64,000 bases of DNA, taken from contig JABGRQ010000077.1 in NCBI GenBank assembly GCA_018648225.1, positions 1,066 through 65,065 on the forward strand. Direction: 5' to 3'. Below, piece by piece: positions 3,001-49,467 of the stretch. A model generated the notes under the pieces. The model made no database searches, was not told the DNA's origin, and worked only from the letters and a program-made list of their open reading frames with translations. Each line of letters starts with the position of its first letter. Position 1 is the stretch's first letter. Source of the DNA: Chloroflexota bacterium. Lineage in GTDB: Bacteria > Chloroflexota > Anaerolineae > Anaerolineales > UBA11858. The position numbers were made by a program, and so were the translations under genes.

Positions 3001-4962
3001 CTCATGGAACCCGATCAGCAGCGTTTGCGAGTGTATGCGACGTATTGTGAGGGAGTTCTGACACAGGATGATGAAATATTTGTCAGTATAGGGAATGGCG
3101 TGGTAGGGACGGTGGCGCAAAATGGCAAACCCGGCCGCATTGATGATGTGCGTGAGTGTGAAAATTATATTGAGCTGAATCCCGATATTCGTTCAGAGCT
3201 ATGCGTGCCCATGCTGGTGGGTGAACGTGTATTCGGCGTGTTGAACGCCGAGAGCGAAAAGGAAAGCGCATTTACGGCAGCGGATGAACGGTTTTTAATG
3301 ACGACAGCCAGCCAACTGGCAATCGTTTTACAGAATTTGCGCCTGAACGCTGAAACCCAAAAACGGGCCTTCGAAATGGAGCGTTTGTATCGGGCATCAG
3401 GATCATTATTTACTACGGCGCCGAATGACCTGGAAAGTATAAGTCTGACGATTGTGGAAACACTGCGCTCGGAGTTTGGGCAATCGAATTGCAGTTTGTT
3501 GTTGATTGAACCCAAAACGAGAGCGCTAAAACGCCTGGCAGCCGTTGGCCCTTATGCGAAAGAAGTCTCGAGTGGCAAAGCGTTGTATTTAGATGGCCCT
3601 GGGCTGGCTCCGACCGCGGCTCGGGAACAGCGAATTATCAATATCGGCGATGTGACTCAGCAACCCAATTATGTGCCCAATTGGGCGGCGGCGCGTTCCG
3701 AAATGGCAATTCCGTTAATCGTCAACGGTGAAGTTATCGGGATAATTGATATTCAAAGCGCAGAGATCAATGCCTTTCAAAAAGACGATGAACGCCTGGT
3801 TTCTGTTTTTGCAGAGCGTGCTGCACTGGCGCTGGAAAATACACGTCTTTATGATGGACAACAACAGCAACTGGCTTTCCTGAACGCGTTGCACCAAATC
3901 GACCTGGCGATCACCGGCAGCATGGATTTGCAAGTTGTATTGGGCGTTGTTTTGCGCCACGTAAAAACAGAACTCGCCGCCGACGCGGCCAATATCATTC
4001 TGCTCGATTCGGCTACAGCTTCCTTTAAATTGGTTGCGCACGAGGGCTATCGGGAACGAAATTCTCACCTGCAAAATATTCGTTACACCAATAGCCTGGG
4101 TGCCGATATTGTCATGCAGGGAAAATCAATGCACTCAAAAGATATCCAGCAAGCGTGTGTAAACCCTGAGCGCAAAGCCATTTTTGAGCGAGAAGGTTTG
4201 CATGGTTATTATGGTACGCCCCTGATTGCAAAAGGTGAAATCAAAGGCGTGTTGGAATTGTTGTTTAAACAACAGGATTTTGAGCTTGACCATCAATGGC
4301 AGTATTTTGCTGATACGATCGCGACTCAGGCGGCGATTGCGGTAGATAATGCGAATCTTTTTGAAAAGCTGGAACATTCCAATATGGAACTTTCTTTGGC
4401 ATACGATACTACCCTGGAGGGTTGGGCCAAAGCCCTGGAACTACGCGATCAGGAAACCGAAGGTCATTCCCGCAGAGTGACCGAATTGGCTGTGAAATTG
4501 GGACGCGCGATGAATGTGCAAGGTGCCGATATGATCCAACTGCGGCGGGGAGCGATCCTGCACGATATTGGCAAAATGGGTGTTCCCGACCATATCCTTC
4601 AAAAACCCGGCCCGCTGACAGATGAAGAATGGGAAATTATGCGTTTGCACCCCGTATATGCTTACGAATGGTTGCGTTCGATTCGCTATTTGCAGCCTGC
4701 CCTGGATATTCCTCATTACCATCACGAACGCTGGGATGGCAGCGGGTATCCGGAAGGGCTGCGCGGCGAGCAAATTCCTAAGGCGGCGCGCCTCTTTGCC
4801 ATTGTGGATGTCTGGGACGCGCTGCGCTCCGACAGACCCTATCGCAAAGCCTGGACGCATCAAAAAGCGATTGAACATTTGAAAAAACAATCCGGTTCTC
4901 ATTTTGATCCAGCGGTTGTCGTATCCTTTCTCGCGATCATTGATTCTCAACCTGAGATTTAA
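1..4962 (+). CDS. Multidomain c-di-GMP signalling protein, 5'-truncated by window edge: REC(partial)-GGDEF-REC-PAS-GAF-PAS-PAS-GAF-GAF-GAF-HD-GYP
   Basis: Frame 1 is open from nt 1. The track start at 43 is a TTG inside a receiver domain (PVIVLTGLEDEALALQAVQSGAQDYLVKG). The GGDEF-type domain has an RQAD I-site and an AGDEF active-site variant (nt 460-474). A second receiver reads LLVEDNPADARLL...LLDLSLPD. The C-terminus has HDIGKMGVP and HHERWDGSGYPEGL (HD-GYP). Confidence 0.9.
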   Translation, partial: DSRGLDTLISAREALPQVPVIVLTGLEDEALALQAVQSGAQDYLVKGEFDAKFLARAISYAHERHQLKQRLLEISITDDLTGLNNRRGFTTLSEQQIRVARRAQTDLLFFFIDVDGLKKINDLHGHSMGDRALLATAQILRKTFRQADIIGRLAGDEFAVLAIHSHENHKDLLLDRLEQERQAYHVDCREPFQLSFSIGIAEWSVLLPRSLEVLMGEADAAMYAHKGEKKLRSNLGIDGSLLDLAVQVESASGATPADAEPSSKLILLVEDNPADARLLQVYLEEIADNDYQLHHAVRLADARELLQQHHYAIILLDLSLPDSRGLETIEIMISAAGNVPIVVMTGLDDQQLATSALQLGAQDYLLKGGYDEISLSRSLTFAMERNSLRTQNLKYARQLRQSEARFRRIITESGDGILILDQQKTVLFANPSAEKIFGTNGSSLQGTLLDVSLEEGDIIELAHNGGAQPPFFVDARYVDIPWQGQPAILATVRDITESVLAQKAIQLQAEDLGLINDINHALNQGATIENLLGVLNEGTKRIFQGYSATIYLLSEDRQYLCPQHFALPGKIAERISRFLGIDIPEVRIPIREGSLVEKMLYGKKISVLDGEDDLLTYLKEYLNTPTLPESARALIGKRLPKILKLLDLKVAVFAPMISDGEVIGALDIGAAQPFSAEEIERVAMIARQITSAIARVLADDRLKELSQRHHLILNSAGEGIIGVNLENTITFANASAAQLLGYAPEELVGQNLHTIVHPALAAGDTFPVSAPICISTLNGRPVSDEQDVFWRSDGSSFLVAYASNPIIFNQQILGAVLTFSDITEKLHSEEQLRLQAAALNSAANAVLIADAQGEVIWANPAFSDLTGYDVAEVLGQNPRVLKSGEHDESFYQQMWSTITGGNVWAGEIINQNKSGNHYHEEMTITPLTDERGEITHFIAIKQDITARKRTESTLQQQLNELSVMHKIAIAGMEANSEENLIAQFVNILGEKVYSDHFTVLLMEPDQQRLRVYATYCEGVLTQDDEIFVSIGNGVVGTVAQNGKPGRIDDVRECENYIELNPDIRSELCVPMLVGERVFGVLNAESEKESAFTAADERFLMTTASQLAIVLQNLRLNAETQKRAFEMERLYRASGSLFTTAPNDLESISLTIVETLRSEFGQSNCSLLLIEPKTRALKRLAAVGPYAKEVSSGKALYLDGPGLAPTAAREQRIINIGDVTQQPNYVPNWAAARSEMAIPLIVNGEVIGIIDIQSAEINAFQKDDERLVSVFAERAALALENTRLYDGQQQQLAFLNALHQIDLAITGSMDLQVVLGVVLRHVKTELAADAANIILLDSATASFKLVAHEGYRERNSHLQNIRYTNSLGADIVMQGKSMHSKDIQQACVNPERKAIFEREGLHGYYGTPLIAKGEIKGVLELLFKQQDFELDHQWQYFADTIATQAAIAVDNANLFEKLEHSNMELSLAYDTTLEGWAKALELRDQETEGHSRRVTELAVKLGRAMNVQGADMIQLRRGAILHDIGKMGVPDHILQKPGPLTDEEWEIMRLHPVYAYEWLRSIRYLQPALDIPHYHHERWDGSGYPEGLRGEQIPKAARLFAIVDVWDALRSDRPYRKAWTHQKAIEHLKKQSGSHFDPAVVVSFLAIIDSQPEI

Positions 4963-4969
4963 ATGGTTC

Positions 4970-5050
4970 TCAGGGAATCCATCCGAGAATCATTTTGGAA
5001 AAAGCTCAAAAAAGGTCATTCTGACGAGTGCAGCGAGGAAGAATCCCTGA
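4970..5050. repeat. GTCATTC...GAATCCC family palindromic repeat (imperfect hairpin) just after the stop codon
   Basis: GTCATTCTGACGAGTGCAGCGAGGAAGAATCCCTGA at 5015-5050 is opposed by a truncated inverted arm TCAGGGAATCC...GAGAATCAT at 4970-4996. It is homologous to the copies at 8754, 32064 and 32147. Confidence 0.7.
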
Positions 5051-5126
5051 AAATGTACGAAAAGCTGGGTGGCGGATGTCATCCAACTCGAAGTTTTTCT
5101 ATATACAGATGGATTTGGAGGAAGTT

Positions 5127-6110
5127 ATGTCGAAATATTTTGTCGCTTCTTTGCTTGTGCTCTTGTTGGTTTTTGGGCTTGCGGCTTGCTCCGTTTTTTC
5201 ACCCCCACGCTCAATTACCGTTGGTATGGTCAATTCCATTGAATCCGCAGACCCGGCCATTGAAGGATTTATGGCCGGGATGGAAAACCTGGGATTTACC
5301 AGCGGTGAAAATATAACCTACATCTACGCCGGGGTAATGGGCGAACCGGATGAAATGGCAGCTCAGGTTGAGGAATTCATCGCCGCAGATGTCGATATGA
5401 TTTTTTCGGTGACCACAGATGCTTCGACAGCGGTGATGGAAGCGAACCAGGCCGCCCAAATCCCTGTGGTTTTTGCTGCCGTGCGAGACCCGGTCGAGGC
5501 TGGTTTTGTGGAAAGCCTGATCCAGCCGGGAGGCAATATGACCGGTGTGCTGGCCAGTGGCGACGCGATCGAAAGTGGTAGGCGTCGCCTCGATTGGCTG
5601 GTGACGATGGTTCCAATTGCCCAAAAAATTTGGGTTCCCTATGAAGATTCAGATACGCTGGCTCCCACCGTGGAAGCGCTGGGAATCACAGCCGCCGACC
5701 TGGGCGTGGAACTTGTTTTATCGGCTGTTAGCACCCCCGAGCAGGTACTGGCTTTACTTGAAAATATTCCCGAAGATGTGGATGGCATCTACTATGTGGG
5801 TGGGCGCGCCTTTGTAGGTCTGACAGACCTGTACATCGAGAAAGCTCTGGCCGCGGGGTTGCCCATATCGGTCAATTATTGTAATGGTGCAAGGAATGGC
5901 GCGTTGACGGCCTTTTGTTCCGATTTTTATTCATCGGGCGTTCAGGCCGCGCGTATCGCCAGCCAGATTCTGGATGATATCGCGCCCTCGTCGATCCCGG
6001 TTGAACAACCGGAACTGCTGATGTTGATTAATTTGAATACAGCCAATCAAATTGGTTTGGATATCTCTGACGAAATCATCCAAATGGCAGACGAGATTAT
6101 CCGCGAGTAG
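5127..6110 (+). CDS. ABC-type substrate-binding lipoprotein (ABC_sub_bind / BMP-like family)
   Basis: GGAGG lies 6 nt before the ATG at 5127. Signal peptide plus lipobox (LLVFGLAACS). Family-typical IPVVFAAVRDPVEAGFVESLIQPGGNMTGV. The track start at 5028 is an unsupported extension. Confidence 0.8.
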   Translation: MSKYFVASLLVLLLVFGLAACSVFSPPRSITVGMVNSIESADPAIEGFMAGMENLGFTSGENITYIYAGVMGEPDEMAAQVEEFIAADVDMIFSVTTDASTAVMEANQAAQIPVVFAAVRDPVEAGFVESLIQPGGNMTGVLASGDAIESGRRRLDWLVTMVPIAQKIWVPYEDSDTLAPTVEALGITAADLGVELVLSAVSTPEQVLALLENIPEDVDGIYYVGGRAFVGLTDLYIEKALAAGLPISVNYCNGARNGALTAFCSDFYSSGVQAARIASQILDDIAPSSIPVEQPELLMLINLNTANQIGLDISDEIIQMADEIIRE

Positions 6111-6162
6111 CGGATTGTGCGAGTCATTCCTGGTGAAAGTCACCGGATTGAGGAGTCTCCTT

Positions 6163-8748
6163 GTGAAAAAAAACATTCGCTTACGGCTGACATTTTCTTT
6201 TCTGATATATTCCATCGTTCCTTTGCTCATTGCAGGCGGGTTGATCGCGCTGTATAGTTACTCGTTCCAACTGGATCAGGCTATAGAGCACCAGGGCCAT
6301 CGCGCCGAGGTCGTCGCGATCCGAACAACAGCTTTTCTTGAAGCATTGGAAATGCAATCGCATTTAGCCTTAAAGCTGGACTATTTCCCAACGATGAGCA
6401 ATGAGGAGATTACCCAAAAGCTGCGCCTTTTACAGGCTGGTGAAGATGCCTTTGTGGAACTTAGCTTGTTGTCAGCCAACGGAGAAGAGCGAGTGCGTGT
6501 GGCGAATAACGATGTGCGGCTCGAATCTGATCTGCGCGATTTTTCACAGGATGAAATATTTCTGACGCCGCTCCAAACCGGGGAAACGTATTATGGGATG
6601 GTACATTTTCATTCTGAAACCGGCGAACCTTTTATGAATATCGCCATACCGATCCAGAACGTGCGCACGGGGCTGGTGGATGGCGTGCTCAGCGCGGAGG
6701 TGCGTATTCGCGCTATCTGGGACATGATCGCCGAAATGAATGTTTCGCCGGATAATAATTTCTATCTTGTGGGGCGCACGGGTGAAATGATTGCTCATCG
6801 CAACCCATCCATCGTTTTGCGGGGCACAACAATTGCTTTACCCGAAGACGATGGGATTACCACCGACCTGGATGGCTCCAGAGTGGTGAGAGGGCGCGCA
6901 AAGGTTATTTTGGGGGAGTCTGCCTGGACGGCGGTCTCGGAAAGCCCACTTTCATACGCGTTAAATCTAACCATTCGATTGGTGCTGGGTGTGGCTTTGC
7001 TCATGCTGATTGCCTTGTTAACATCAGCGTATTTGGGTTTTTCCATCGTGCGCCAGATCATTCGCCCGATTGAAAAATTTTCGCTGGCCGCGCAGCAGAT
7101 TTCGGCTGGCAATTTCTCGCAGCGTGTTGATATTCATGGGGAAGATGAAATTGCCTCATTGGGCGTTTCTTTTAACAAAATGGCGACGGAGTTGTTAGGT
7201 TTATTTGGCTCGTTGGAAGAAAAAGTCGCCGAACGCACGCAGGCGTTGAAGGCCTCTCAACTGGCCGCCTTGCAAGTCAACGATGCGCTCAGGGCCAGTG
7301 AAGCGCGCCTGCAAGCGATTATGGATCATTCGCCCGCGCTGATATCGATTAAAGACCTGGATGGCAATATCATCCTGGCGAACCGCAAATTAGCCGATTT
7401 TGATATCCCGGCGCTGGATGATTATACCGGGCAAAATCTCTATGATCTATTTCATTTTGATACCGCCGAAGTGTTATGGCACAACGCCCTGGCCGCGCTG
7501 CAAGCCGGGGAGGTCGTTCAGGCTGAGGAGCGAATCCTTCATCGAGATAGCAGCGAGCATATTTATCTGACCACGAATTTCCCGCTGTTCCTCGAGCCGG
7601 ATCAACCCTTTGGCGTTGGGGGTATTTCCACCGACATCACAGATCGAAAAAAGATGGAGCAGCGCATTGCCGCGACTCTGGCATTTAATCAAAAGTTGAT
7701 CTCATCTTCACCTTTGGGAATTTCAGTTTATGATGCCACCGGCCAGTGCATTACGGCGAATGAAGCGGCTTCAACGATCGTTGGCGCAACGCTGGAGCAA
7801 ATCTTACAACAGAATATATATCACATCCAATCCTGGAAAAAATCAGGCTTGTTAGAGACTGCGAAAGCCGCCTTGCAAACCGGTTCGGATACCCGGCAGG
7901 AAGTTCATACCGCAAGCTCTTTTGATCAACAAGTCTGGCTGGACTGCCGTTTTATACCTTTCGATCAGGAAGATAACCGGCAATTGATGCTCATCATGGA
8001 TGATATTTCGGATCGAAAGCAGGCCGCCCAAAAATTAGCTGAAAAAGCCCAGGAACTTTCTCGCTCGAACGCCGAACTGGAACAATTCGCCTATGTGGCC
8101 TCCCACGATCTTCAGGAACCCCTGCGTATGGTCTCCAGTTATTTGCAACTGATTGAACGCCGCTATACCGATAAACTGGATGAGGCGGGTCTTGAATTTA
8201 TTGCTTTTGCTGTGGATGGGGCGGCGCGCATGAAACAGCTTATCAATGATTTACTCGCCTTCTCGCGCGTTGGAACGCGCGGGGCACCACTAAAGAAAAC
8301 ACATCTGGATGATGTTTTAGGGAAAGTGCATATTAATTTGCAGCCGTTACTGGAAGAACACCGCGGCATTATTTTAGTAGAAGAATTGCCCATAGTTTAT
8401 GCCGATGAAAACCAGATGACGCAACTTTTCCAGAATATGATTGGGAATGCACTCAAGTTTCATGACAGCACCCCCCCACGCATTGAAATTGGCGCTGAAA
8501 GGAAGGCCGATCACTGGCAGATTCATATCAGGGATAATGGCATTGGGATTGATCCCCAGTATCAGGAACGCATTTTTGCCATTTTCGAGCGATTGCATAC
8601 CGCGCAAGAATACAAAGGAACGGGCATCGGACTCGCCATTTGTAAGCGTATCGTTGAACGGCATAATGGGCGCATCTGGGTAGAGTCGAACCTCGGAGAA
8701 GGGGCTACGTTTTATTTCACCCTGCCCATATTGCAGGAAACTGAATAA
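6163..8748 (+). CDS. Sensor histidine kinase (TM - extracytoplasmic domain - TM - HAMP - PAS - PAS - HisKA - HATPase)
   Basis: GTG at 6163 follows GAGGAG. HAMP (RPIEKFSLAAQQISAGNFSQRV...NKMATEL), H-box FAYVASHDLQEPLRM, and N/G boxes (QNMIGNALKF, DNGIGID, GTGIGLAICK). Confidence 0.85.
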   Translation: MKKNIRLRLTFSFLIYSIVPLLIAGGLIALYSYSFQLDQAIEHQGHRAEVVAIRTTAFLEALEMQSHLALKLDYFPTMSNEEITQKLRLLQAGEDAFVELSLLSANGEERVRVANNDVRLESDLRDFSQDEIFLTPLQTGETYYGMVHFHSETGEPFMNIAIPIQNVRTGLVDGVLSAEVRIRAIWDMIAEMNVSPDNNFYLVGRTGEMIAHRNPSIVLRGTTIALPEDDGITTDLDGSRVVRGRAKVILGESAWTAVSESPLSYALNLTIRLVLGVALLMLIALLTSAYLGFSIVRQIIRPIEKFSLAAQQISAGNFSQRVDIHGEDEIASLGVSFNKMATELLGLFGSLEEKVAERTQALKASQLAALQVNDALRASEARLQAIMDHSPALISIKDLDGNIILANRKLADFDIPALDDYTGQNLYDLFHFDTAEVLWHNALAALQAGEVVQAEERILHRDSSEHIYLTTNFPLFLEPDQPFGVGGISTDITDRKKMEQRIAATLAFNQKLISSSPLGISVYDATGQCITANEAASTIVGATLEQILQQNIYHIQSWKKSGLLETAKAALQTGSDTRQEVHTASSFDQQVWLDCRFIPFDQEDNRQLMLIMDDISDRKQAAQKLAEKAQELSRSNAELEQFAYVASHDLQEPLRMVSSYLQLIERRYTDKLDEAGLEFIAFAVDGAARMKQLINDLLAFSRVGTRGAPLKKTHLDDVLGKVHINLQPLLEEHRGIILVEELPIVYADENQMTQLFQNMIGNALKFHDSTPPRIEIGAERKADHWQIHIRDNGIGIDPQYQERIFAIFERLHTAQEYKGTGIGLAICKRIVERHNGRIWVESNLGEGATFYFTLPILQETE

Positions 8749-11082: not shown

Positions 11083-11961
11083 TTACTTCAACAGCCTGGC
11101 GTAGACCCCCAGATGATTGCCCACCGGACGCTCGCGCCCCGGGATGCTGTTGTTAATTGGAGAATTGAGTACATCCGCACCGAGCGCGCCTTCCACCACC
11201 ATTGTGGACGAGCCCCCCCCATCCAGATTCATGGCTGTCCAGCCGCCGTGGTAGGCGATGATTTCAGCCAGTTCCAGCAATGTGGCTCCTTCGGAATAAC
11301 CCGGTTGGCGTCCATCCACAACCACGAAGATCAAGTAGCGATTGGCGCGATCCAGTGCCACGGCTGTGCGCGGCTCGGGGGAACCTTCCAGCCCGGCGAT
11401 AGGCTCACCTTTATTGAGCAGCATTAAATTGCCCGAGATGGCATTATAGATTTTGCTGGTAGGGGCATTGAAGCGCGCCCCGTTGTTGATCGCCAGATAC
11501 AGGGTTGGTTCTTTATCAGTATCTTGCGAATAGGTGATTTCCTCAGAAGCCGCAAAACCAATTGGGGCCACGCGGTCGCCCACATGGGGGTAGTAGTCTA
11601 AAAAAGTGCGTGAATGCCAGGGTTCAAAACCATCGCCGTTGATGGCGATTTGCAGATCAAAATTATTCAGAAATTGGGAGGTGGTGCGTGCCTTGAGGGG
11701 TAATTCTTCCTCGGGATTTCCCGGCGTAACCAGCAGGCGAATGCCCTCGGCGCGCAAGTCGATTTTGATAACGTGGATCACCATGCGCCGCGGCGAACTG
11801 CGAATATCACGGATATATTCCACGCCTTGATAGAGCATTTTCTGTGTGGGTTGCGGGCGCACGCGCCGCACGTACCACATCCCGCCGATGATGGCTAAAA
11901 TAACAAACCCTAGCGCAAATATCGCGCAACAGGGCGTAAAAACTCTCTTGACTTTATTCAT
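11083..11961 (-). CDS. Phosphodiester glycosidase family protein (DUF2233/NAGPA-like), N-terminal membrane anchor
   Basis: N-terminal TM helix, INGDGF, and AMNLDGGGSSTM typical of the family. Confidence 0.65.
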   Translation of the reverse strand: MNKVKRVFTPCCAIFALGFVILAIIGGMWYVRRVRPQPTQKMLYQGVEYIRDIRSSPRRMVIHVIKIDLRAEGIRLLVTPGNPEEELPLKARTTSQFLNNFDLQIAINGDGFEPWHSRTFLDYYPHVGDRVAPIGFAASEEITYSQDTDKEPTLYLAINNGARFNAPTSKIYNAISGNLMLLNKGEPIAGLEGSPEPRTAVALDRANRYLIFVVVDGRQPGYSEGATLLELAEIIAYHGGWTAMNLDGGGSSTMVVEGALGADVLNSPINNSIPGRERPVGNHLGVYARLLK

Positions 11962-12099: not shown

Positions 12100-13143
12100 C
12101 TACTGTTCCCACTCCAGAAACGCTTCAAGAATGCGGAAATTTTGTTCGAAATCCGTATCGCGGTGATTGGTGAGTTCAATATCCACCGCGGGGATGCCCG
12201 CATTTGAAGCCCAGTCGATCAGTTGCCCAGTGAATGTGCAGCTCGTATCGATGGGTGGATACGGGTAATTGCTCACTGCGGCAAGGGATTCTGCCAGGCG
12301 GATTGAGTCTGAATCTGGGGGTTGTCCGCCTGCAAAGATGCCTAACGCTGCGCTGTGATAACTGATAAGCGCTTCGATTCGATGTGTGAGCATAAAATCC
12401 ATCAGGGCAGTGGTTTCTGGCTCCGAAGCGGCGCGTGGCCCGGCGCTGATCGGTCCATAATCCCAACAGCCGTTGCGTGACCATTCGGCTTGCCAAAGGG
12501 CGGGGAAGTTGCGATTGAGGTCAACCCCATTGGCATTGGCGCGGCCATCGACATTGTGGGAACGCGCTTCGCCATCCGGGTTGAAGGCGCGTAATATATA
12601 GAGCCGCATGTCCGCAGGGATGATTTCGGGATGCTGCCCGATATAGGCGATTAACTCATCCGCCAGCGCAACGGTATTCCATTCGTAGCCGCCATGAATC
12701 CCGGCAATAATCAAATGCTCGCGGGAGCCAGAGCCAAAGGCAAAGATTTCCAGCGGACGGCCATTGACAGAGTGCCCGATCACGGTTGGCAAAGTTGTGC
12801 GCGGCGTGGCCGATGGGTTGCGCGTACGCGTGGGAAAATTCAGGGTTGCGCTGGGTTGCGGGGTACTGCTGGGAAGTGGCGTTGGGCTGGGAACGACGGT
12901 ATCGCTTGGAACGGGAGTAGGGCTGGGTTCAAGCGTTACAGATGCAACGACTGGGGTAATTTCTACGTTATTCTGTGTGGAAGATAGCTGCATTGGCTGT
13001 TGCGATAAGACTGCATTGGTTCCGTTTTGCCACCAAATCGCCGCGCCTAGGCCAACGAATAATATCAGCACCAGCCCCCAAATTGAGGACACAATCACAC
13101 GCAGGGAGCGGTTTTTGTCGTTTCTGCGTTTTTGCATTAGCAC
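12100..13143 (-). CDS. M14-family zinc carboxypeptidase with membrane anchor and Pro/Thr/Ser-rich linker
   Basis: GIHGGYEWNT, DLNRNFP and YHSAA motifs. N-terminal TM helix and a PSPTPVPSDTVVPSPTPLPSSTPQPS linker. Confidence 0.8.
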   Translation of the reverse strand: MLMQKRRNDKNRSLRVIVSSIWGLVLILFVGLGAAIWWQNGTNAVLSQQPMQLSSTQNNVEITPVVASVTLEPSPTPVPSDTVVPSPTPLPSSTPQPSATLNFPTRTRNPSATPRTTLPTVIGHSVNGRPLEIFAFGSGSREHLIIAGIHGGYEWNTVALADELIAYIGQHPEIIPADMRLYILRAFNPDGEARSHNVDGRANANGVDLNRNFPALWQAEWSRNGCWDYGPISAGPRAASEPETTALMDFMLTHRIEALISYHSAALGIFAGGQPPDSDSIRLAESLAAVSNYPYPPIDTSCTFTGQLIDWASNAGIPAVDIELTNHRDTDFEQNFRILEAFLEWEQ

Positions 13144-13191
13144 TTCAATATTGGTAACTGCTCAGGCTAACGCCTTCGCAGATAGAATTCC

Positions 13192-13243
13192 AAAAAAGGG
13201 GGTGTGCCTGGGGGCGTACGCCCCCAGGCACACCCCCTTTTTT
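13192..13243. terminator. Perfect palindromic intrinsic terminator (A6 - 19-bp GC stem - T6)
   Basis: AAAAAA GGGGGTGTGCCTGGGGGCG TA CGCCCCCAGGCACACCCCC TTTTTT. It lies downstream of the minus-strand DUF1385 gene. Confidence 0.8.
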
Positions 13244-13388
13244 GGCCTCTTTTTGTTTGAGGCTGAGCAGTCACAAATAGTGACCCTAAAAGTTTTCGGC
13301 TGAGGACCCATCCGTTCAGCAAATTTGGGGCCGTATGAACAGAGTAGCACGGCTCTCTTTGCAAACCTTTGGGCTCGACTTCAGGGAG

Positions 13389-16726: not shown

Positions 16727-17611
16727 ATGAACCTTTGGAAAAACTATCATAACGCGCGTTCCGTGCAAGATGCGTTACAGGCTCTCAGCGCCGCACCCGG
16801 TGATGCCAGCCTGATCGCAGGAGGTACCGACCTGCTGCTCGACCTTCAGCAGGGCCGTCATGCCCCCGTCCACACGCTTGTGGATATAACCGCCATCCCC
16901 GAAATGACAGCACTCGAAATTCGAGAAGGGGAACTCTATATTGGTGCTGCCGTCCCTCACGCCCAGATTACCCAATCGAAAATTGTAAACCAACACGCCG
17001 CCGCGCTGGCTACAGCCAGTGGTCTGGTTGGCGGCCCCCAGGTGCGCAATACTGCCACTTTAGGCGGCAATGTTGCCCACGCGCTGCCCGCTGCCGATGG
17101 CACGATTGCCTTAGTCGCGCTGGATGCACAGGCTGTGATCGCCAGCTCTGCCGGGACTCGCCGCCTCCCGTTGGAAGAACTCTTCCTCGGGCCGGGACGC
17201 TCAGCCCTAGAGCCGCGCGGGGAACTCCTGGTTGGGTTTTATCTCCCCCTCAAGGGAATCCAGCAAGCCTCGGCCTTTAAGCGTATCATGCGCCCTCAGG
17301 GAGTTGCCATTGCTATCTTAAATACCGCCGTCTGGCTTCATCGAGAAGGGGACACCATCGCCGATGTACGTATCGCGATCGGGCCATCGGGACCAGTGCC
17401 GCGCCGCTTGCGTCAGGCCGAAGACGCCTTGCGCGGACAAACCTTTGGCCCAGAAGCCATCCAGGCTGGGATTGACGGGGCACAAGCTGAAGCCAATTTC
17501 CGCACCAGCCGCCACCGCTCGACGAAAGAATATCGTCAAAAAATGGCGGGCGTTTTGCTGGAAGATACATTGAATATGGCCTGGCGCGATGCCGGGAAAG
17601 CGGGTAACTGA
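16727..17611 (+). CDS. XDH-family molybdenum hydroxylase, FAD-binding (medium) subunit, set 1 (YgfM/CoxM-like)
   Basis: ATG at 16727. LIAGGTDLLLDL and ATLGGNVAHA FAD motifs, and C-terminal SRHRSTKEYRQKMAG. The track start at 16298 runs antisense into the neighbouring gene. Confidence 0.85.
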   Translation: MNLWKNYHNARSVQDALQALSAAPGDASLIAGGTDLLLDLQQGRHAPVHTLVDITAIPEMTALEIREGELYIGAAVPHAQITQSKIVNQHAAALATASGLVGGPQVRNTATLGGNVAHALPAADGTIALVALDAQAVIASSAGTRRLPLEELFLGPGRSALEPRGELLVGFYLPLKGIQQASAFKRIMRPQGVAIAILNTAVWLHREGDTIADVRIAIGPSGPVPRRLRQAEDALRGQTFGPEAIQAGIDGAQAEANFRTSRHRSTKEYRQKMAGVLLEDTLNMAWRDAGKAGN

Positions 17612-17612
17612 G

Positions 17613-20450
<2,838 letters not shown>

Positions 20451-22512: not shown

Positions 22513-23175
22513 ATGGCACAAGAGAAACTCGTCATCGCCGTCCTCGGCGGCACCGGCAAAGAAGGCCCTGGTTTGGCAATGCGCTGGGCGCACGCTGGAT
22601 ACAAAGTTATCATTGGCTCGCGCAAGGCAGAGAAAGCTGAAGCCACAGCGATAGAGCTTAATGAAAAGCTGGGCATCGATACGATCACTGGGTTGGCAAA
22701 TGAAGATGCCGCTCGCGTGGCTGACATCAGCGTTCTGACCGTAGTCGCTACGGCGCACCAGCCCGCAGTGACCGGGTTGAAGGATGCACTCAAGGGCAAA
22801 ATCATGGTGGATGCCACGGCGCGTGTGGATTTCCGAGATCCCAAACCACCGGCAGCCCCTGCGGCAGCCATCACCGCTCAAGAAATTCTTGGCCCCGACG
22901 TGCGTGTTGTGGCCGCTTATCAAAATGTGCCCGCTCACACGCTGAAGCACAACCTCGGCGGGAAGATCGCCACCGATGTGATGATTTGCGCTGATGATGT
23001 CAGTGCTGCCGAGCAGGTGATGGCACTTACCGAAGCCGCCGGGATGCAGGCTTACTACGCCGGTAGTTTGGCGAATGCCCTGACAGTGGAAGGGTTGACG
23101 GCCATCTTGATTAGCATGAACAAATATTACAAAGTGAAGACAGCCAGTATTCAGGTTTCGGGGCTGAGTTTATAA
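22513..23175 (+). CDS. fno: NADPH-dependent F420 reductase (F420H2:NADP oxidoreductase)
   Basis: IAVLGGTGKEGPGLAMRWAHAGYKVIIGSRKAEKAE Rossmann start typical of NpdG/Fno. GGAG RBS. Confidence 0.8.
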   Translation: MAQEKLVIAVLGGTGKEGPGLAMRWAHAGYKVIIGSRKAEKAEATAIELNEKLGIDTITGLANEDAARVADISVLTVVATAHQPAVTGLKDALKGKIMVDATARVDFRDPKPPAAPAAAITAQEILGPDVRVVAAYQNVPAHTLKHNLGGKIATDVMICADDVSAAEQVMALTEAAGMQAYYAGSLANALTVEGLTAILISMNKYYKVKTASIQVSGLSL

Positions 23176-23184
23176 TTCCTTGAA

Positions 23185-23973
23185 ATGCGTCTTACCCTCA
23201 CACCCCTTCCCGGTTATCCCCTCATACAGCCTGGCGATGACCTTACCTTGATGATTCTTGACGCGTTGCATTGTGCCAATGTAGAACTTGTCAACGGTGA
23301 TGTGCTTGTGCTAGCTCAGAAGATTGTTTCTAAAGCCGAGGGCCGGATGGTGGATTTATCTACAGTAGAACCTTCACAAACTGCACAAGATTTAGCCGCA
23401 GAAACCCATAAAGACCCGCGTGTCGTTGAGTTAATTCTGCAAGAGAGCCGCGAAATCGTGCGCACGCGACCTGGTCTGATCGTAGTCGAGCATAATCTGG
23501 GCTTTATTTGCGCCAACGCCGGGATTGACCATTCGAATATAAATTCCCCTTTCCCCGCGGGAGAGGGGCCAGGGGTGAGGGTTGATGAATTTGCCTTGCT
23601 CCTCCCCAAAGACCCCTCGGCCTCTGCCGCTGCGCTGCGTCAAAAATTGCACGCGACCACCGGCGCGCAGATCGGCGTGCTGATCATCGACTCGCATGGG
23701 CGCGCCTGGCGTGCGGGTACCGTCGGCATGACGATTGGCCTGTCGGGTATCCCCGGCGTGGAAGACCTGCGCGGGCAGCCTGATCTGTTCGGGCGTACGT
23801 TGCTAGTCACGCAGGTGGGTGTGGCCGATGAATTGGCCGCCGCGGCATCCCTGATGATGGGGCAGGCCGCCGAAGGCACTCCCGTTGTGCATGTGCGCGG
23901 TTTTCCCTATCCACTGCGCGAAGGTCAGTTTAATGAGTTGCTGCGTCCTAAAAACGAAGATTTATTTCGATAA
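23185..23973 (+). CDS. cofE: Coenzyme F420-0:L-glutamate ligase
   Basis: KIVSKAEGR, GFICANAGIDHSN, VLIIDSHGRAWR and DELAAAASL motifs. Confidence 0.85.
   Translation: MRLTLTPLPGYPLIQPGDDLTLMILDALHCANVELVNGDVLVLAQKIVSKAEGRMVDLSTVEPSQTAQDLAAETHKDPRVVELILQESREIVRTRPGLIVVEHNLGFICANAGIDHSNINSPFPAGEGPGVRVDEFALLLPKDPSASAAALRQKLHATTGAQIGVLIIDSHGRAWRAGTVGMTIGLSGIPGVEDLRGQPDLFGRTLLVTQVGVADELAAAASLMMGQAAEGTPVVHVRGFPYPLREGQFNELLRPKNEDLFR
23546..23581. repeat. GC-rich palindromic element inserted in frame in cofE
   Basis: CCCCTTTCCC-CGC-GGGAGAGGGG is a stem with one T:G pair, followed by CCAGGGGTGAGGG. The 36 nt equal 12 codons (part of SPFPAGEGPGVRV). Confidence 0.7.
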
Positions 23974-23996
23974 TTCATGCAGGATGGAGAGTATCT

Positions 23997-24380
23997 GTGA
24001 AAAACATCCCCGAAGAATATCACGACCTGTTACAAGACGACCGCAAAGCCTTTGCCGTACTCGCCACCATCATGGATGACGGCACGCCGCAGGCTACACC
24101 GGTTTGGTTCAGCTACGATGGCGAGTACATCTTGCTCAACTCGGTTAAAGGACGTATCAAAGATCGCAATATGCGCGCCCGCCCGCAAATTGCTCTGACA
24201 ATCTTCGCCCCCGCCGATATGTACCGTTTCGTGCAGGTGCGCGGCCGTGTGATCGAAATGACAGAGGCAGGCGGCTGGGATCATATCCATTACCTGGCGC
24301 AGACTTATATGGGTGTGGAGCGTTGGGAGCATGGCTCCCCCGACGACGTGCGCGTCATTTACAAGGTAGCTGCCGAATAG
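23997..24380 (+). CDS. PPOX-class (pyridoxamine-5'-phosphate-oxidase-like) probable F420-dependent enzyme
   Basis: GTG start after GGAG. Split-barrel pattern AVLATIMDDGTPQATPVWF...ILLNSVKGRIKDRNMRARPQIAL. F420 gene context. Confidence 0.7.
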   Translation: MKNIPEEYHDLLQDDRKAFAVLATIMDDGTPQATPVWFSYDGEYILLNSVKGRIKDRNMRARPQIALTIFAPADMYRFVQVRGRVIEMTEAGGWDHIHYLAQTYMGVERWEHGSPDDVRVIYKVAAE

Positions 24381-24381
24381 C

Positions 24382-24984
24382 ATGAACGACGCCCACCGCT
24401 TTCTGCGCTCGCGCCGCTCGGTGCGCCGTTTCGAGCCGCAGCCCGTGCCGCGGGCAACTCTCCATCGCATTCTGGAAACGGCTACCTACGCCCCTTCGGC
24501 GCATCATCGCCAGCATTGGCGTTTTGTGGTGCTGGAAACCCCCGAAGCGAAAACTCGCTTGGCTGATGCGATGGGCGCAGAATTTGAGCGCGATCTGACC
24601 GTTGACGGGCTGAATCTCGCAGACATGCAAGCGCAGGTGGCGCGGTCTCGCAATCGAATTTTGGGCGCACCGGTTGCGATTGTCTTATGTTTTGACTCCT
24701 CCGTCGGTGATGATTATGCAGATGCAGACCGTCAGCGTGCAGAATGGCTGATGGGCGCGCAGAGCGCTGCTCTGGCTGGATTACAGCTCTTACAGGCGGC
24801 TCACGCGGAGGGCCTGGGTGGGGTGTGGACCTGTGGGCCTTTATTTGCCCCCGAAGCGGTACGCCGCGCGCTGGGGATTCCATCCCGATGGGAGCCACAA
24901 GCCCTGATGTTGATCGGCCACCCCGCACAGATTCCCGCGCCGCGGCTGCGCAAACCGGTTGAAGAAGTAACGGTGTTTTTATGA
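24382..24984 (+). CDS. Nitroreductase-family protein (stand-alone equivalent of the FbiB C-terminal domain?)
   Basis: FLRSRRSVRRF...PSAHHRQHWRF nitroreductase signature. It lies between cofE and cofD, with a 4-nt overlap with cofD. Confidence 0.7.
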   Translation: MNDAHRFLRSRRSVRRFEPQPVPRATLHRILETATYAPSAHHRQHWRFVVLETPEAKTRLADAMGAEFERDLTVDGLNLADMQAQVARSRNRILGAPVAIVLCFDSSVGDDYADADRQRAEWLMGAQSAALAGLQLLQAAHAEGLGGVWTCGPLFAPEAVRRALGIPSRWEPQALMLIGHPAQIPAPRLRKPVEEVTVFL

Positions 24985-25931
24985 AAGTTGTTGCCCTTGC
25001 TGGCGGTGTCGGTGGCGCAAAGCTGGCCGATGGATTGGCACAGGCGCTGCCCCCCGAAGATTTAACTATCATCGTCAATACCGGTGATGATTTTGAGCAT
25101 TGGGGCCTGAAAATCTGCCCCGATCTCGATACGGTTTGCTACACTTTGGCAGGTTTGGCGAATCCGGAAACCGGCTGGGGCCGCGTGGACGAAAGCTGGC
25201 AGGCTTTCGAGAATATTGCCACGCTGGGCGGCGCAGACTGGTTCAGGATTGGCGACCGCGATCTGGGCACGCATATCGAGCGCACGCGGCGATTGAACGC
25301 CGGAGAAACTCTCAGTGCAGTGACGGCCGCTTTCTGCCGCGCCTGGGGCATTGGACCGCGCGTCCTGCCAATGAGCGATGATCCCATCCCGACGATGGTT
25401 CTCACCAATGATGGCGTTTTGCCCTTTCAGGAATATTTTGTCCATCAGCGTTGCGAGCCGCGCGTCAGCGGCTTCCGCTTCGAAGGTGTTGAGCAAGCCC
25501 AACCCGCTCCCGGAGCGCTGGAAGCCATCGAGAATGCCGATGCGGTTATTTTTTGCCCGTCCAACCCGTGGGTGAGTATCAACCCTGTTTTGGCCGTCCC
25601 CACTCTGAGGTCTGCTCTCGCCGCTCCCCCAACTTTGGGAGAAGGGGACCGGGTGAAGGTCGCCGCGGTCTCTCCCATCATCGGCGGGCAGGCGCTCAAA
25701 GGCCCGGCGGCCAAAATGTACGCCGAACTGGGTATTCAGCCCTCGGCGATAGCTGTCGCACAGCACTATCAGGATTTGCTTACTGATTTTATCTTTGACA
25801 CGCTCGATCAGGAGCAAGCGGCGGCGATCGGTTCCTTAGGGATGCGTGCGTTGGTGACAGATACGGTGATGAAAACAAAAGATGATCGAAGACGTCTAGC
25901 AGAGGAAGTTCTTCAGTTTTTGACCAGGTAA
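24981..25931 (+). CDS. cofD: 2-phospho-L-lactate (or EPPG) transferase
   Basis: MKVVALAGGVGGAKLADGL, NTGDDFEHWGL, and CPSNPWVSINPVL. Confidence 0.9.
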   Translation: MKVVALAGGVGGAKLADGLAQALPPEDLTIIVNTGDDFEHWGLKICPDLDTVCYTLAGLANPETGWGRVDESWQAFENIATLGGADWFRIGDRDLGTHIERTRRLNAGETLSAVTAAFCRAWGIGPRVLPMSDDPIPTMVLTNDGVLPFQEYFVHQRCEPRVSGFRFEGVEQAQPAPGALEAIENADAVIFCPSNPWVSINPVLAVPTLRSALAAPPTLGEGDRVKVAAVSPIIGGQALKGPAAKMYAELGIQPSAIAVAQHYQDLLTDFIFDTLDQEQAAAIGSLGMRALVTDTVMKTKDDRRRLAEEVLQFLTR

Positions 25932-25983
25932 CTTTTGATACAATTGCAGCAAGGAAAGTTCAGGAAAGGACACTAAATACTCG

Positions 25984-26595
25984 ATGACACTTTGGGCAAT
26001 TGTCCCCGTAAAACCGCTCCGCCGTGGGAAATCGCGACTTTCCGCGGTCTTTTCGGAAGATGAGCGCACAGACTTGAACCGGTATTTATTAGAGAATACC
26101 GTCCGCACGTTAAAAAAAATCCCCGATATTGAACATGTTTTAGTCGTTAGTCGGGATCCGAGGGCTTTAGCAGTAGCGCGTGATTTGGGCGCTCGCACAG
26201 TTCAGGAGAATGGGCAGCCGCATCTGAATGTGGCGCTCACTCGTGCAACTGTTGTGGCAAAAACCTATGCCACGCGTGGTGTTCTGATCTTGCCTTCCGA
26301 TTTGCCGTTGGTTACTGAAGAAGATATTCAGGTGATGCTGGATCGGGCCGTTGACCCCCCTGTTGTTGTGTTGGCTCCTGATAGGCACAGGCAGGGCACG
26401 AATGCCTTGCTGGTGTGCCCGGTCGGGTTGATTGAGTATCATTATGGTGACGATTCGTTTGAAAAGCATTGTGCACTGGCGCGCGAAAAAGGCGCCCGCG
26501 TAGAAATTTGTGAACTCCCCTCGCTAACGCTGGATTTAGATCGCCCGGAAGACCTGGTTTTACTGGAAGAACGTTTGGATATCAAAATTGATTAA
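25984..26595 (+). CDS. cofC: 2-phospho-L-lactate/PEP guanylyltransferase
   Basis: LWAIVPVKPLRRGKSRL start motif. LILPSDLPL and GTNALL. Confidence 0.85.
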   Translation: MTLWAIVPVKPLRRGKSRLSAVFSEDERTDLNRYLLENTVRTLKKIPDIEHVLVVSRDPRALAVARDLGARTVQENGQPHLNVALTRATVVAKTYATRGVLILPSDLPLVTEEDIQVMLDRAVDPPVVVLAPDRHRQGTNALLVCPVGLIEYHYGDDSFEKHCALAREKGARVEICELPSLTLDLDRPEDLVLLEERLDIKID

Positions 26596-42769: not shown

Positions 42770-45700
42770 ATGTCCGACTTTCTCTTCCGCGGTACCATTG
42801 CCGATTTAGACCCCAAACTTGCTGATTTAACCGAAATTGAAGCCGAGCGCCAATATCGCAAGCTAATTTTGATCCCTAGCGAAAGTACTTCGCCGATGGC
42901 TGTGCGCGAAGCCCTCTCGACAGCCTTCCACAATATTTACGCCGAAGGCTATCCCTCCGAGCACACCCGCTGGCAAACCGAAGACGAAATCTTCGATTAT
43001 GACAACCGTCTCGCTGAAGATCGCCGCTATTCCGATCCGCGCTACTACAAAGGCGTGGAATACGCCAACGTGGTCGAAGCGCTGGCGCGCCGCCGCTGTG
43101 CCGAAGCCTTCGCCGCTACTGCCGAAGGTGTTGATGCCGATGATGTCTACGTTAACGTGCAGGCGCTCTCTGGCGGCCCGGCCAATAACGCCGTGTATCA
43201 CGCCCTCGTGCAGCCCGGCGATACCGTCATGGGCATGGATTTGCTCTTCGGCGGTCACCTGTCGCACGGTTCGCGTGTCAACCGTTCGGGCAAATACTAT
43301 AATATTGTCTCCTATTCGATTGACCCTGAAACTGAGCAAATCAATTACGATAACGTTGAAGCCATCGCCCTCGAGCACAAGCCCAAGATGATTATTGCCG
43401 GGGTCTCATCTTACCCCTGGCAGATTGACTGGAAACGCTTCCGCGAAATCGCCGACAAAGTTGGCGCATACCTGCTTACCGACATTGCCCACGTCGCTGG
43501 GCTGGTGGCCGCGGGTGTCTACCCCTCCCCGGTGGGCATCGCCGATGTGGTCTCATCCACCACGCACAAGACCCTCAACGGGCCGCGCGGCGCCATCCTG
43601 ATGACCACTGACCCCGTCATCGCCCGCAAACTCGACCGCGCCGTCTTTCCTGGTGAGCAAGGCGGGCCGCATGTTAATGTTTTCGCGGCCATGGCGCTGG
43701 CCTTCAAGATTGCTCAAACGGATCAATTTAAAGAGTTACAAACCCAGGTCGTGGCGAACTGCAAAGCCTTCACCGACCGCCTTGCTGAGCGCGGCTTCAC
43801 AATCCCCTTTGGCGGCACCAATACGCACCTGATGAATCTCGATACCAAATCCATCAAGGGCGCGGGTGGTGCCACCCTCAGCGGTGATCTGGCGGCTCGC
43901 CTACTCGATCTGGCGGGCATTACCACCAATCGCAACACCATCCCTGGCGACCGCTCGGCGCTGCGTCCTTCGGGCGTGCGCATGGGTATGCCCTGGGTCA
44001 CGCAGCGCGGCTTCAAGGAAAAAGAATCCATCGCCCTGGCCGATGCCATAGCCGATATTCTTTTGGCAGCCACGCCTTATTATCAGGGCAAGGCGCTGCG
44101 TGCCAAAGTTGATTTCGAAGCTTTCCAGAACGCCAAACTCAAAGTGCGTGAGCTTTCCACGCTGGCCGGGATTGACTTTGAACCCGGTTCGGCTGGGTAT
44201 CCGCATTTTTATTATTTGGATGATGAATATTCTGGCGACGTGGTGGCCTTCGATTTGGGCGGGGAACGCGTCCGGCAGTTTTTACACACCGTCATGGCGA
44301 GTGACGTGGACTCGCTCGGTGTGGGTGAGGCGCACTTCACGCGCTTTACTGCCCCCGGCGGCGAGATTCTCGCCACCCTGCGCTGCCTGGAATCGAAACT
44401 CTATCGCCTGAGCGTACCGGGCGAAAAGGCCGCTCTCACCGCCGCGTGGCTGCGCGATCTTTCGGATGGCTATGTCAAGTTTGATGACGACCTGCTGCGC
44501 AAAGTGCAGGGTCCGGTTTGGGTACGGCACTCCACCCAGCAGGCAGATGAACTTCCTGTCGCGGGTGTAGAAATCCCTGACAGTGGCAAACCTTGGTTTA
44601 TCGGCGTCACCTCCGGGGCTGGCGATCCTTTACCCGAATTCAAATGGGAAGAGAAAGAAGGCCCGATCCGCCGCACTTCGATTTATGATTTGCACGTTGA
44701 ATTGGGCGGGCGTATGGTTCCGTTTGCCGGGTGGGAAATGCCCGTGCGCTACGGCTCGGTGATGGAAGAGCACATGGCCGTGCGTGAAGCCGCCGGGATT
44801 TTCGACGCCGCCCACATGGGCGTGTATCAGGCCGAAGGCCCCGAAGCAGCGGCCTTTTTAGACAGCGTGTGTGGCAACGATGTCACTTCGTTGGGCGTGG
44901 GCCAATCGCTGTATACGCATTTCCTGACCCCCGATGCCGAAGTGATCGACGATCTGCTGATCTATCGCCGCGCAGATGAAGTCTATCTGGTGGTGGTCAA
45001 CGCCTCCAATGACGATAAAGACTGGGCCTGGCTCAACGCTGTGCGGGAGGGCAAAGTGAAAATTGACAACGCCCGCCCGTGGGCGCTGGCCTTTGGCCGC
45101 GGCGTGAACTTGCGCAACCTGCGCGACCCCAAGGAAGGCGCAGATATGCGTGTAGACATTCCTCTACAAGGCCCGCGCTCGCGCGACATTCTGCTGGCAA
45201 TGGGCGTGAGCGATGCCGACCGCAAGAAAATTATGAAACTCAAGCGCACCGAGTTGTGTGATGCCGTAGTCGGAGGGATTGATTTAATCGTCTCTCGCAC
45301 CGGTTACACCGGCGAAAAGATGGCCTTTGAATTGTTTGTACATCCCGACAAAGCCCAGGAACTCTTTAGAAAACTACTCGAAATTGGCAAGCCTTTTGGC
45401 CTGGTTCCGGTTGGTTTGGGTGCGCGCGATTCGCTGCGCACGGAAGCTGGTCTGCCGCTTTACGGCCACGAAATGGCTGGCGATTTAGGCAACGGTGTCG
45501 CCGAAGGCGGTTTTGGTTCTTATGTGAAGACCTATAAGCCATGGTTCATCGGGCGTGATTCTTTCCTGGCTCGTGAAGCCAAACGCAAGGGTATTGTGGT
45601 GCGCTTCCGCTTCGATGAGCAGCGCGTGCGCATGGCGCATCCCGGCGATCCGGTGGTAGATGACAAAGGGCGCGTGATTGGCACGGTCACAAGCTGCGCC

Positions 45701-45894: not shown

Positions 45895-45956
45895 AGACCT
45901 CCGAGGTTTTCGCGAAGCACTTCAAGTGTCGCGAAGAAGCAAAACCTCGGAGGTCT
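45895..45956. repeat. AGACCTCCGAG-family hairpin (terminator-like), copy A
   Basis: AGACCTCCGAGGTTTT...AAAACCTCGGAGGTCT is a perfect 16-bp stem with an inner CTTC...GAAG stem. Confidence 0.8.
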
Positions 45957-45969
45957 TGATTTATTCTGA

Positions 45970-49396: not shown

Positions 49397-49459
49397 AGAC
49401 CTCCGAGATTTTTTGCGTAGCACTTCGAGCCGGGCGAAGAAGCTAAATCTCGGAGGTCT
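49397..49459. repeat. AGACCTCCGAG-family hairpin, copy B (bidirectional terminator between convergent genes)
   Basis: AGACCTCCGAGATTT...AAATCTCGGAGGTCT followed by TTTTTT. The G-to-A change in the stem relative to copy A is matched by a C-to-T change in the partner arm. Confidence 0.8.
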
Positions 49460-49467
49460 TTTTTGTG

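Follow-up and report, generated by a model that had tools for sequence, protein, structure and literature searches.

A hairpin repeat read in frame within cofE of an Anaerolineales bacterium, its family and its linkage to DUF559 nuclease genes

In a 64,000-nt stretch of contig JABGRQ010000077.1 from an Anaerolineales bacterium (Chloroflexota), hereafter the window, the F420-0:gamma-glutamyl ligase gene cofE carries a hairpin-plus-tail sequence of 37 nt (23545–23581, +) that is probably an old, partly decayed copy of a selfish dispersed hairpin repeat, tolerated in a disordered loop of the enzyme and belonging to a family linked to genes for DUF559 nucleases. This assignment rests on the sequence itself, on its match to a profile built from independent copies, on its absence from about 45 of 80 orthologous loci and from the CofE structures in the PDB, and on its coil state in a structural model.

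The cofE copy and its repeat family

The host gene (23185–23973, +) is a 262-aa open reading frame (ORF) that matches the Pfam family F420_ligase (PF01996, E=1.4e-76) and the A. fulgidus CofE structures 2g9i, 2phn and 7uld (E ~1e-49). Read 5' to 3', the copy consists of a T, the arm CCCCTTTCCC, the loop CGC, the arm GGGAGAGGGG, the spacer CCA and the tail GGGGTGAGGG, with a 10-bp stem of nine Watson–Crick pairs and one T:G pair, exactly as an earlier note on this DNA had described it for 23546–23581. It is translated in frame as SPFPAGEGPGVR directly after the conserved GIDHSN motif, in the context ...GIDHSN-IN-SPFPAGEGPGVR-VDEFA-LLLPKDP. Solved archaeal CofE has only VEEGS where the window protein has 19 residues, and this, together with the element-free orthologues, bears out the proposal that the segment is an addition relative to most CofE orthologues and the solved structure. 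The core is indeed 36 nt long, but it does not amount to 12 inserted codons as had been supposed, the net gain being seven to nine codons relative to element-free orthologues and 13 residues relative to A. fulgidus CofE. In an AlphaFold (AF2) model the insert is a coil or unstructured stretch (predicted local distance difference test score ~52), which places it in a predicted disordered surface loop. Single-copy fold energies did not stand out from those of shuffled sequences (z from -0.3 to -1.9, none significant), and with z=-0.7, unexceptional for its C/G-rich composition, the cofE copy owes its significance to its family, not to its energy.

That family was defined by an exact-pattern scan of metagenome contigs, in which arms and tail were fixed by the pattern and loops left free, and which yielded at least 120 stretches with at least 137 copies at loci that carry no taxonomic labels. 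A profile hidden Markov model (HMM) built from the 137 metagenome copies listed, none of them from the window, was matched with nhmmer by window positions 23545–23581 over model positions 2–38 (E=1e-8, 31.3 bits). The same profile matches, at E=0.0015, the 3' half of a second copy (17856–17911, +), which lies in an XDH-like molybdoenzyme. On this sequence comparison the two copies belong to one repeat family, as the earlier note had proposed from their common tail GGGGTGAGGG, and a chance similarity between two sites is not compatible with the E-value obtained from independent copies.

The second copy interrupts the linker between the Fer2 and Fer2_2 domains (Pfam limits 12–61 and 105–173) of its host, which was assigned from its ORF (17589–20450, +) and Pfam matches; the copy itself was delimited from sequence, fold, Pfam limits, relatives and the HMM. 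It comprises CCCCTCTCC (17856–17864), a nested 26-nt insert holding a small hairpin of its own, GGAGAGGGG (17891–17899), TT and GGGGTGAGGG (17902–17911), the tail of which folds into a further hairpin with 17917–17928, and it is translated in another frame than the cofE copy, as PLSL..REERGWGEG. The linker has 28 residues in the window and six to seven in two related loci (L001 and L002; L-numbers denote loci used for comparison) and in the window's own paralogue at 35731. In L203 it has 32 residues, with the element in another frame, and in L204 and L004 it contains another repeat family. These two are the only full copies within the window, and all copies there are intragenic.

The family consensus reads (CT)CCCCTCTCC(C), a variable loop, (G)GGAGAGGGG, 2–4 nt and GGGG(G)TGAGG(G), ~33–40 nt in total. 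Because loop-adjacent bases pair far above shuffles, with a mean stem extension of 1.31 bp compared to 0.35 +/- 0.05 in shuffled loops (137 copies listed), and because the extra pairs are of varied type (C-G, G-C, A-T and T-A), we regard the hairpin as real; the cofE copy of L006 also shows a compensatory T>C / A>G stem change. Long ORFs span 59 of the 137 copies listed, in all six combinations of frame and orientation, and 101 of them leave five of the six frames open. Where a stop occurs it is usually the tail's TGA, in one sense frame, and the consensus contains no other; with stops so nearly absent a copy whose length is divisible by three merely lengthens the protein. Hosts confirmed by Pfam, with the element inside or between domains, are HsdM, NuoG, MetH, LeuRS, an ABC transporter, a DnaE-type polymerase and Lhr. 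Moreover, a full palindromic copy lies at 479–513 of L196 inside a bacterial class A RNase P RNA gene (192–660, -; Rfam RF00010, 218 bits) that spans 469 nt compared to 367 model positions; the repeat therefore also inserts into structured RNA genes. The repeat is thus defined by its nucleotides and hairpin and not by a peptide, in line with the earlier note, given the different frames and orientations found in XDH, cofD and many unrelated genes. It occurs in both Chloroflexota and Pseudomonadota. An Rfam search in E-value mode of the window region and 15 element-bearing loci returned no family for the element and nothing above noise. In the open-access papers searched for the element's sequence and peptides, and for in-frame palindromic repeats, we found no description of it, which leaves its novelty unproven.

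Two further features of the cofE gene deserve mention. Window positions 23559–23581 (GGGAGAGGGG-CCA-GGGGTGAGGG) hold four G-runs with 3-nt spacers, a canonical G-quadruplex motif; formation of the predicted quadruplex would be at the expense of both the hairpin and 5' arm–tail pairing, for which an alternative fold was computed. No T-run of the kind that marks an intrinsic terminator follows the hairpin. Near the start of the gene, the codons for LTLTPLP (CCCTCACACCCCTTCCC, 23195–23211) resemble the complement of the element's 3' half (CCCTCACCCC..CCCCTCTCCC), and a loose pattern scan picked the same place in L006, L009 and L031. The HMM gave no match to these codons at E<=10 in the window and none at E<0.01 in related loci, and we treat the resemblance as a probable chance product of Pro, Leu and Thr codons.

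Turnover and age of the copies in Anaerolineales

We compared cofE loci from 80 Anaerolineales/Chloroflexota genomes, taking the loop between GIDHSN and LLLP. About 45 of them have a short, element-free 12-residue loop (V-A-G-x-G-...-E-E-W-V), and at least 15 bear the same nucleotide element, always translated SPLPxGEGxGVR, with conserved arms and variable loops (CGC, GCGTGC, TTTCA, TTT, GGAATT, TGA and others). The copies of L045 and L027 contain nested insertions, and those of L022 and L015 an additional 5' complement of the tail that makes a longer palindrome. The same spot also takes an unrelated hairpin repeat of the GAGACCTCCGAGGTCTC type (type B) in L002, L019, L023, L065 and L203, and a third type in L037 and L058. 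These loop states are patchily distributed on a neighbour-joining tree computed with the loop masked, a crude tree that we used for patchiness only and not for counting gains; the nearest relatives of the window cofE on it are L001 and L004, with short loops, and L002, with the other repeat.

A second hotspot lies two genes downstream, in the loop of cofD between SNPWVS(I/V)xP(I/V)L and SPIIGG. Forward copies there are translated SPLLSGEGxGVR (clean in L027 and L054, decayed in L036 and L044, and with a nested insert in L028) or, in another frame, ERGWGEG (L045 and L010), and reverse copies are translated LTPTPLPLGEG (L011, L030, L058, L003 and L008) or lie in yet another frame (L009). Since these configurations are not interconvertible by point mutation, they imply several insertions at the site, or inversions through the palindromic stem, and a single ancient gain is excluded for cofD. 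The window's own cofD (2-phospho-L-lactate transferase; 24981–25931, +; PF01933, E=7.8e-46) holds a decayed third copy at ~25624–25659 (+), CTCCCCC-AACTTT-GGGAGAAGGGG-AC-CGGGTGAAGG, translated PPTLGEGDRVK between SNPWVSINPVL and SPIIGG. It falls below HMM significance and was assigned by the position of the orthologous loop and its residual arms, and comparison with the L203 orthologue also backs it.

Over 1.43 Mb of Anaerolineales DNA, significant HMM matches fall almost only in the cofE loop, the cofD loop and the XDH linker. These three sites have repeatedly gained, inverted, nested, swapped or lost hairpin repeats across Anaerolineales. At the cofE loop the turnover of the repeat family across lineages is real, with a timing that cannot be read from the window.

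The copy in the window is not a recent arrival. It recurs in L201 (CofE 83% identical), there too with a CGC loop and with 35 of 37 bases matching, so that the insertion is older than the split between the two. At lower CofE identities, L203 (81%) bears a type-B hairpin with a tail remnant (ATGGTGAGAG) and L204 (74%) a pristine consensus copy, and L001 and L004 retain short loops. The cofE coding sequences of the window and L201 are 75.7% identical; their synonymous third positions agree at 10 of 10 sites inside the element compared to 49% outside, near saturation, and the chance of such agreement at that identity is 0.49^10, ~8e-4. Over eight loci the corresponding identities are 0.73 and 0.53. 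The pattern expected if CofE orthologues shared only amino acids over unrelated nucleotides, which the earlier note had named as its own refutation, is thus not what we find. Its suggestion of an active or recently active repeat, by contrast, does not hold for this copy, in view of its presence in L201, the near-saturated synonymous sites and the one stem position already decayed. Judged from these comparisons, the cofE copy is old and has been vertically inherited at least since the split from the lineage with 83% CofE identity.

Either hairpin constraint or renewal by gene conversion would explain the slower-than-neutral nucleotide change inside the element. Copies at orthologous sites range from perfect 10–11-bp stems to 3–5 residual pairs, a spread that favours cycles of renewal and decay and speaks against a functional constraint acting uniformly. 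A lineage-specific, extended variant of ~60 nt is common to the L203 inserts of the XDH linker (4461–4556) and the cofD loop (12528–12650) (GCCCCTCCCCCGRCGGCTGAYGCCGCC...CCCCTCTCCC...GGGAGAGGGGAGG) and not present in the window's orthologous copies, which suggests, at the sequence level, spread or gene conversion of copies within that genome.

Linkage to DUF559 nuclease genes and alternative explanations

The repeat family is tightly linked to genes for DUF559 (Vsr-like) proteins. Four ORFs in the metagenome loci selected for the element have a DUF559 motif, and each has elements on its flanks at distances of up to 300 nt; the three checked against Pfam matched PF04480 (E=1e-38 to 1e-42). The flanking copies are clearly inverted in L117 and L183. 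In L117, a complete hairpin–DUF559–hairpin unit (3952–4384) lies in frame within the activation domain of MetH, the B12-dependent methionine synthase, where it splits Met_synt_B12 into two stretches of the host ORF (3424–7683, -) and places DUF559 at residues 1128–1231. Among close homologues of the L183 nuclease, ~33 of 38, read by eye, run into an element-derived peptide such as PLPQAGEGLG, LTPxPSPACGRGE or LSRRRERGWGEG. By the same kind of reading of listed sequences, an element-type peptide occurs within 45 residues of the domain in 89 of 131 DUF559 representatives (50% identity clusters), 37 of them with one on both sides; among control stretches lying >100 residues away, the figure is 6 of 204. 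The family itself comprises 13,897 cluster representatives at E<=1e-10. More than 12 of the 50% identity representatives (among P0248–P0287) share a single in-frame insertion site in HsdS-like type I restriction specificity proteins, where they follow FKSWFVDFDPVRAK and are bracketed by element-derived peptides, a recurrence that, on sequence, looks like a site-specific homing pattern. Finally, the only elements within 20 kb adjoin the DUF559 gene in L206, between hypD and hypE of a Nitrosomonadales genome, and in L209, and this pair includes a DUF559 protein that has no peptide signature and is still element-flanked at the DNA level.

Published work offers some context. DUF559 proteins are enriched among targets of programmed inversion (Milman et al., PMC9881135), as expected for genes bracketed by inverted repeats, and Vsr-like nucleases include proven EDxHD homing endonucleases (PMC3239194, PMC3384342; also PMC9403480). 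In the open-access literature searched on DUF559, EDxHD or Vsr-like proteins and inverted repeats, we found neither hairpin-flanked DUF559 cassettes nor a described role for DUF559.

We infer the causal direction and the mode of mobilisation as follows. Hairpins of the family bracket, as inverted copies, small cassettes that code for a DUF559 (Vsr-like PD-(D/E)XK) endonuclease, and these nucleases may mobilise or renew them by cleavage followed by repair from another copy, in a homing-like or gene-conversion-like manner. On this view the cofE copy and other solo hairpins would represent non-autonomous derivatives, or footprints, and a copy whose length is a multiple of three, once landed in or copied to a surface loop that tolerates it, would do no more than lengthen the protein. 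Microhomology at the cofE site may help templated copying from a donor. Going further, and tentatively, the hairpin-plus-tail could be the recognition or boundary sequence of an undescribed class of selfish elements, ~0.5–0.7-kb DUF559 cassettes that spread between phyla and insert in frame into conserved genes with no intron or intein around them, leaving solo hairpins behind. Such cassettes might be tolerated because their ends are nearly stop-free, and the solo hairpins in cofE, cofD and XDH might be renewed by gene conversion. If true, this would give the DUF559 family a function and explain a common source of loop insertions in enzymes.

In-frame palindromic repeats are already known from a few lineages, and the cofE insert introduces no new principle in itself. 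What would be new, if confirmed, is one short hairpin common to Chloroflexota and Pseudomonadota that occurs in numerous housekeeping proteins as well as a gene for RNase P RNA; the repeated hitting, flipping and swapping of the same loops in two F420-biosynthesis enzymes; and the tight DUF559 link, which leads to a direct, testable hypothesis for the role of those nucleases. The cofE and cofD loops would then offer a natural system for studying protein remodelling by selfish DNA, and on the practical side such repeats generate spurious hypothetical proteins and artificial gene fusions in annotation.

Several observations count against a selfish, DUF559-linked repeat as the source of the cofE segment. 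No DUF559 gene lies in the 64-kb window, where the cofE copy is a solo hairpin, and 1.49 Mb of Anaerolineales sequence contains a single, frameshifted one (L051), ~400 nt from a variant element. A scan of the 137 copies listed for target-site duplications (k-mers of 2–6 nt at any offset) gave none meaningfully above expectation, and no defined element ends were found. Cassettes occur both with tails outward (L117 and L183) and with tails inward (the HsdS-embedded set), which no simple transposon model predicts together. The cofE copies all share one orientation and frame, and one ancient insertion followed by many losses and in-place replacements is possible at that site. Outside the hotspot loops the element is rare (two matches in ~1.3 Mb); this rarity also means that frequent random insertion cannot explain the recurrence and that a high background density is not its cause.

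Some of these points would sit as well with hairpins that are the targets rather than the ends of DUF559 cassettes, that is, with an independent or host-maintained repeat beside or between copies of which DUF559 genes home, the cofE copy being unrelated to them. That account is unlikely, though several points favour it: both tail arrangements occur around DUF559, most copies are solo, and the Anaerolineales hotspots have hairpins and almost no DUF559 genes. What tells against it is that in L206 and L209 the sole copies within 20 kb touch a DUF559 gene, which fits co-mobility better than a pre-existing dispersed repeat, and that no other candidate mobiliser was seen.

Rather less probable still is that the element is kept for an action in cis in the F420 operon, for example through an mRNA or DNA hairpin or a G-quadruplex switch with a tuning influence on replication, on the stability of the mRNA or on its translation, so that the repeat origin would be secondary. 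Many orthologous copies are heavily decayed, down to 3–5 contiguous pairs, about half of the orthologues have no insert at all, the same loop takes unrelated hairpin families and either orientation, and the single-copy fold is unexceptional, all of which is hard to reconcile with such a role. Conservation of synonymous sites beyond coding needs, the concentration of copies in the F420 gene cluster and the 3' half GGGAGAGGGG-NN-GGGGGTGAGGG, a canonical four-tract G-run motif, do favour it.

We consider it very improbable that the segment arose in situ and convergently, through slippage or template switching at G-rich codons for G-E-G in the ancestral loop (in some short forms GGAGAGGGG) and without a mobile donor. 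Short loops do read V-A-G-E-G-..., with DNA in L018 and L059 (GGAGAGGG(G/A)) identical to the 3' arm, and the net gain is only seven codons; such an origin nonetheless leaves unexplained the shared GGGGTGAGG tail, the 37-nt unit in unrelated genes and two phyla, the inverted cofD copies and the DUF559 link, and a donor-independent origin is hard to square with the HMM match at E=1e-8. It can hardly be credited that the segment is no more than a lineage-specific loop of the protein, conserved for its amino acids, with a chance likeness to the XDH insert: many Anaerolineales CofE share SPLPxGEGPGVR in the same frame, but the nucleotides are more conserved than the amino acids require, XDH and cofD translate the same DNA in other frames or from the other strand, the nearest relatives L001 and L004 do not have the segment, and the same HMM match stands against chance; we accordingly rejected SPLPxGEGPGVR as a protein motif on the frame and orientation data.

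Relation to known systems and other features of the window

Among known systems, the repeat family is closest to the Rickettsia palindromic elements (RPEs), for their in-frame palindromes, and to REP/REPIN-RAYT systems, for hairpins flanking an enzyme gene, and is a member of neither, being shorter than RPEs and not confined to one genus and, unlike REPs, intragenic and linked to a Vsr-like nuclease. RPEs were reportedly described by Ogata et al. in 2000, and to our knowledge no enzyme is associated with them. Like the present repeat, they are palindromes occurring in frame, in more than one reading frame, and they have intergenic copies as well as copies in RNA genes. They differ in measuring 100–150 bp and occurring in Rickettsia only, whereas our element is ~35–40 nt long, is found in Chloroflexota, Pseudomonadota and unlabelled metagenome contigs and flanks DUF559 genes. 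The window copy, with 37 nt and an Anaerolineales host, is set apart from RPE-1 to RPE-8 by length and host. RPEs are mentioned in PMC1779305 and PMC10969869.

With REP/REPIN-RAYT systems (Bertels & Rainey 2011, PMC3116915) the family shares a short GC-rich hairpin with conserved stem and variable loop, the lack of target-site duplication, and inverted copies that flank the gene of a presumed mobilising enzyme (here in L117 and L183). REPs, however, are extragenic, species-specific and present in hundreds per genome, and the enzyme in their case is a Y1 transposase of the IS200/IS605 type; in the present family, many copies, including those of the window, are intragenic, the same stem sequence occurs in two phyla, copy density in Anaerolineales is low (the two non-hotspot matches given above) and the flanked genes encode a Vsr-like PD-(D/E)XK nuclease (DUF559).

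The cassettes also recall the EDxHD/Vsr-like homing endonucleases such as I-Bth0305I (PMC3239194, PMC3384342), both in the DUF559/Vsr superfamily nuclease fold and in recurring at one conserved position of a conserved gene (the HsdS-like site) and inside MetH. Known members reside in group I introns or inteins that are spliced out, whereas the cassettes here are bounded by hairpins, encode predicted nucleases and appear to be read through in frame: at the sequence level, cassette ORFs are continuous with host ORFs, no Rfam intron or other family covers the element and the inserts are far too short for an intein. A Vsr-like nuclease is encoded by cassettes elsewhere and not in the window. Bacterial miniature inverted-repeat transposable elements (e.g. 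in Coxiella, PMC5896051; reviewed in PMC10969869) are likewise small, non-autonomous repeats with inverted arms that can extend ORFs, but they have terminal inverted repeats and target-site duplications derived from insertion sequences with a DDE transposase, and no duplication was found here. Nor did the loci examined, which were not searched systematically for one, show a parent insertion sequence with the ends of our element. Small dispersed repeats of cyanobacteria, which reportedly (Elhai et al. in 2008) are ~21–27 nt long and form hairpins, resemble it in inserting into genes, other repeats and RNA genes with their hairpins preserved; by that description they have other sequences and are confined to cyanobacteria, and we know of no enzyme associated with them.

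In the window, cofE and cofD belong to an F420 gene cluster (22513–26595) with genes for an F420-dependent NADP reductase-like protein, CofE, a PNPOx-like protein, a nitroreductase-like protein resembling the C-terminal domain of FbiB, CofD and CofC. The L201 orthologue of the reductase-like gene carries Pfam F420_oxidored. The cluster keeps its synteny in L201 and L203, and for the most part in L204, and XDH-like molybdoenzyme genes lie on both sides. A different long hairpin repeat is present in two copies, 82% alike (45895–45957 and 49398–49460; AGACCTCCGAGRTTTT...AAAWCTCGGAGGTCT), each just past the stop of an ORF (42770–45886 and 48167–49387, respectively), a terminator-like position; its GACCTCCGAGGTC core is also the core of the type-B repeat that lies in frame in the cofE loop of the five loci listed above. 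In the metagenome set, the contig of L173, which bears three copies of the hairpin element, also carries two inverted Acido-Lenti-1 RNA motifs (RF01687; 55 and 50 bits) at 11256–11301 (-) and 11401–11446 (+). Lastly, a perfect 56-nt palindrome in the window (13190–13245; CCAAAAAAGGGGGTGTGCCTGGGGGCGT / ACGCCCCCAGGCACACCCCCTTTTTTGG) has A/T runs on either side and resembles an intrinsic terminator acting in both directions.

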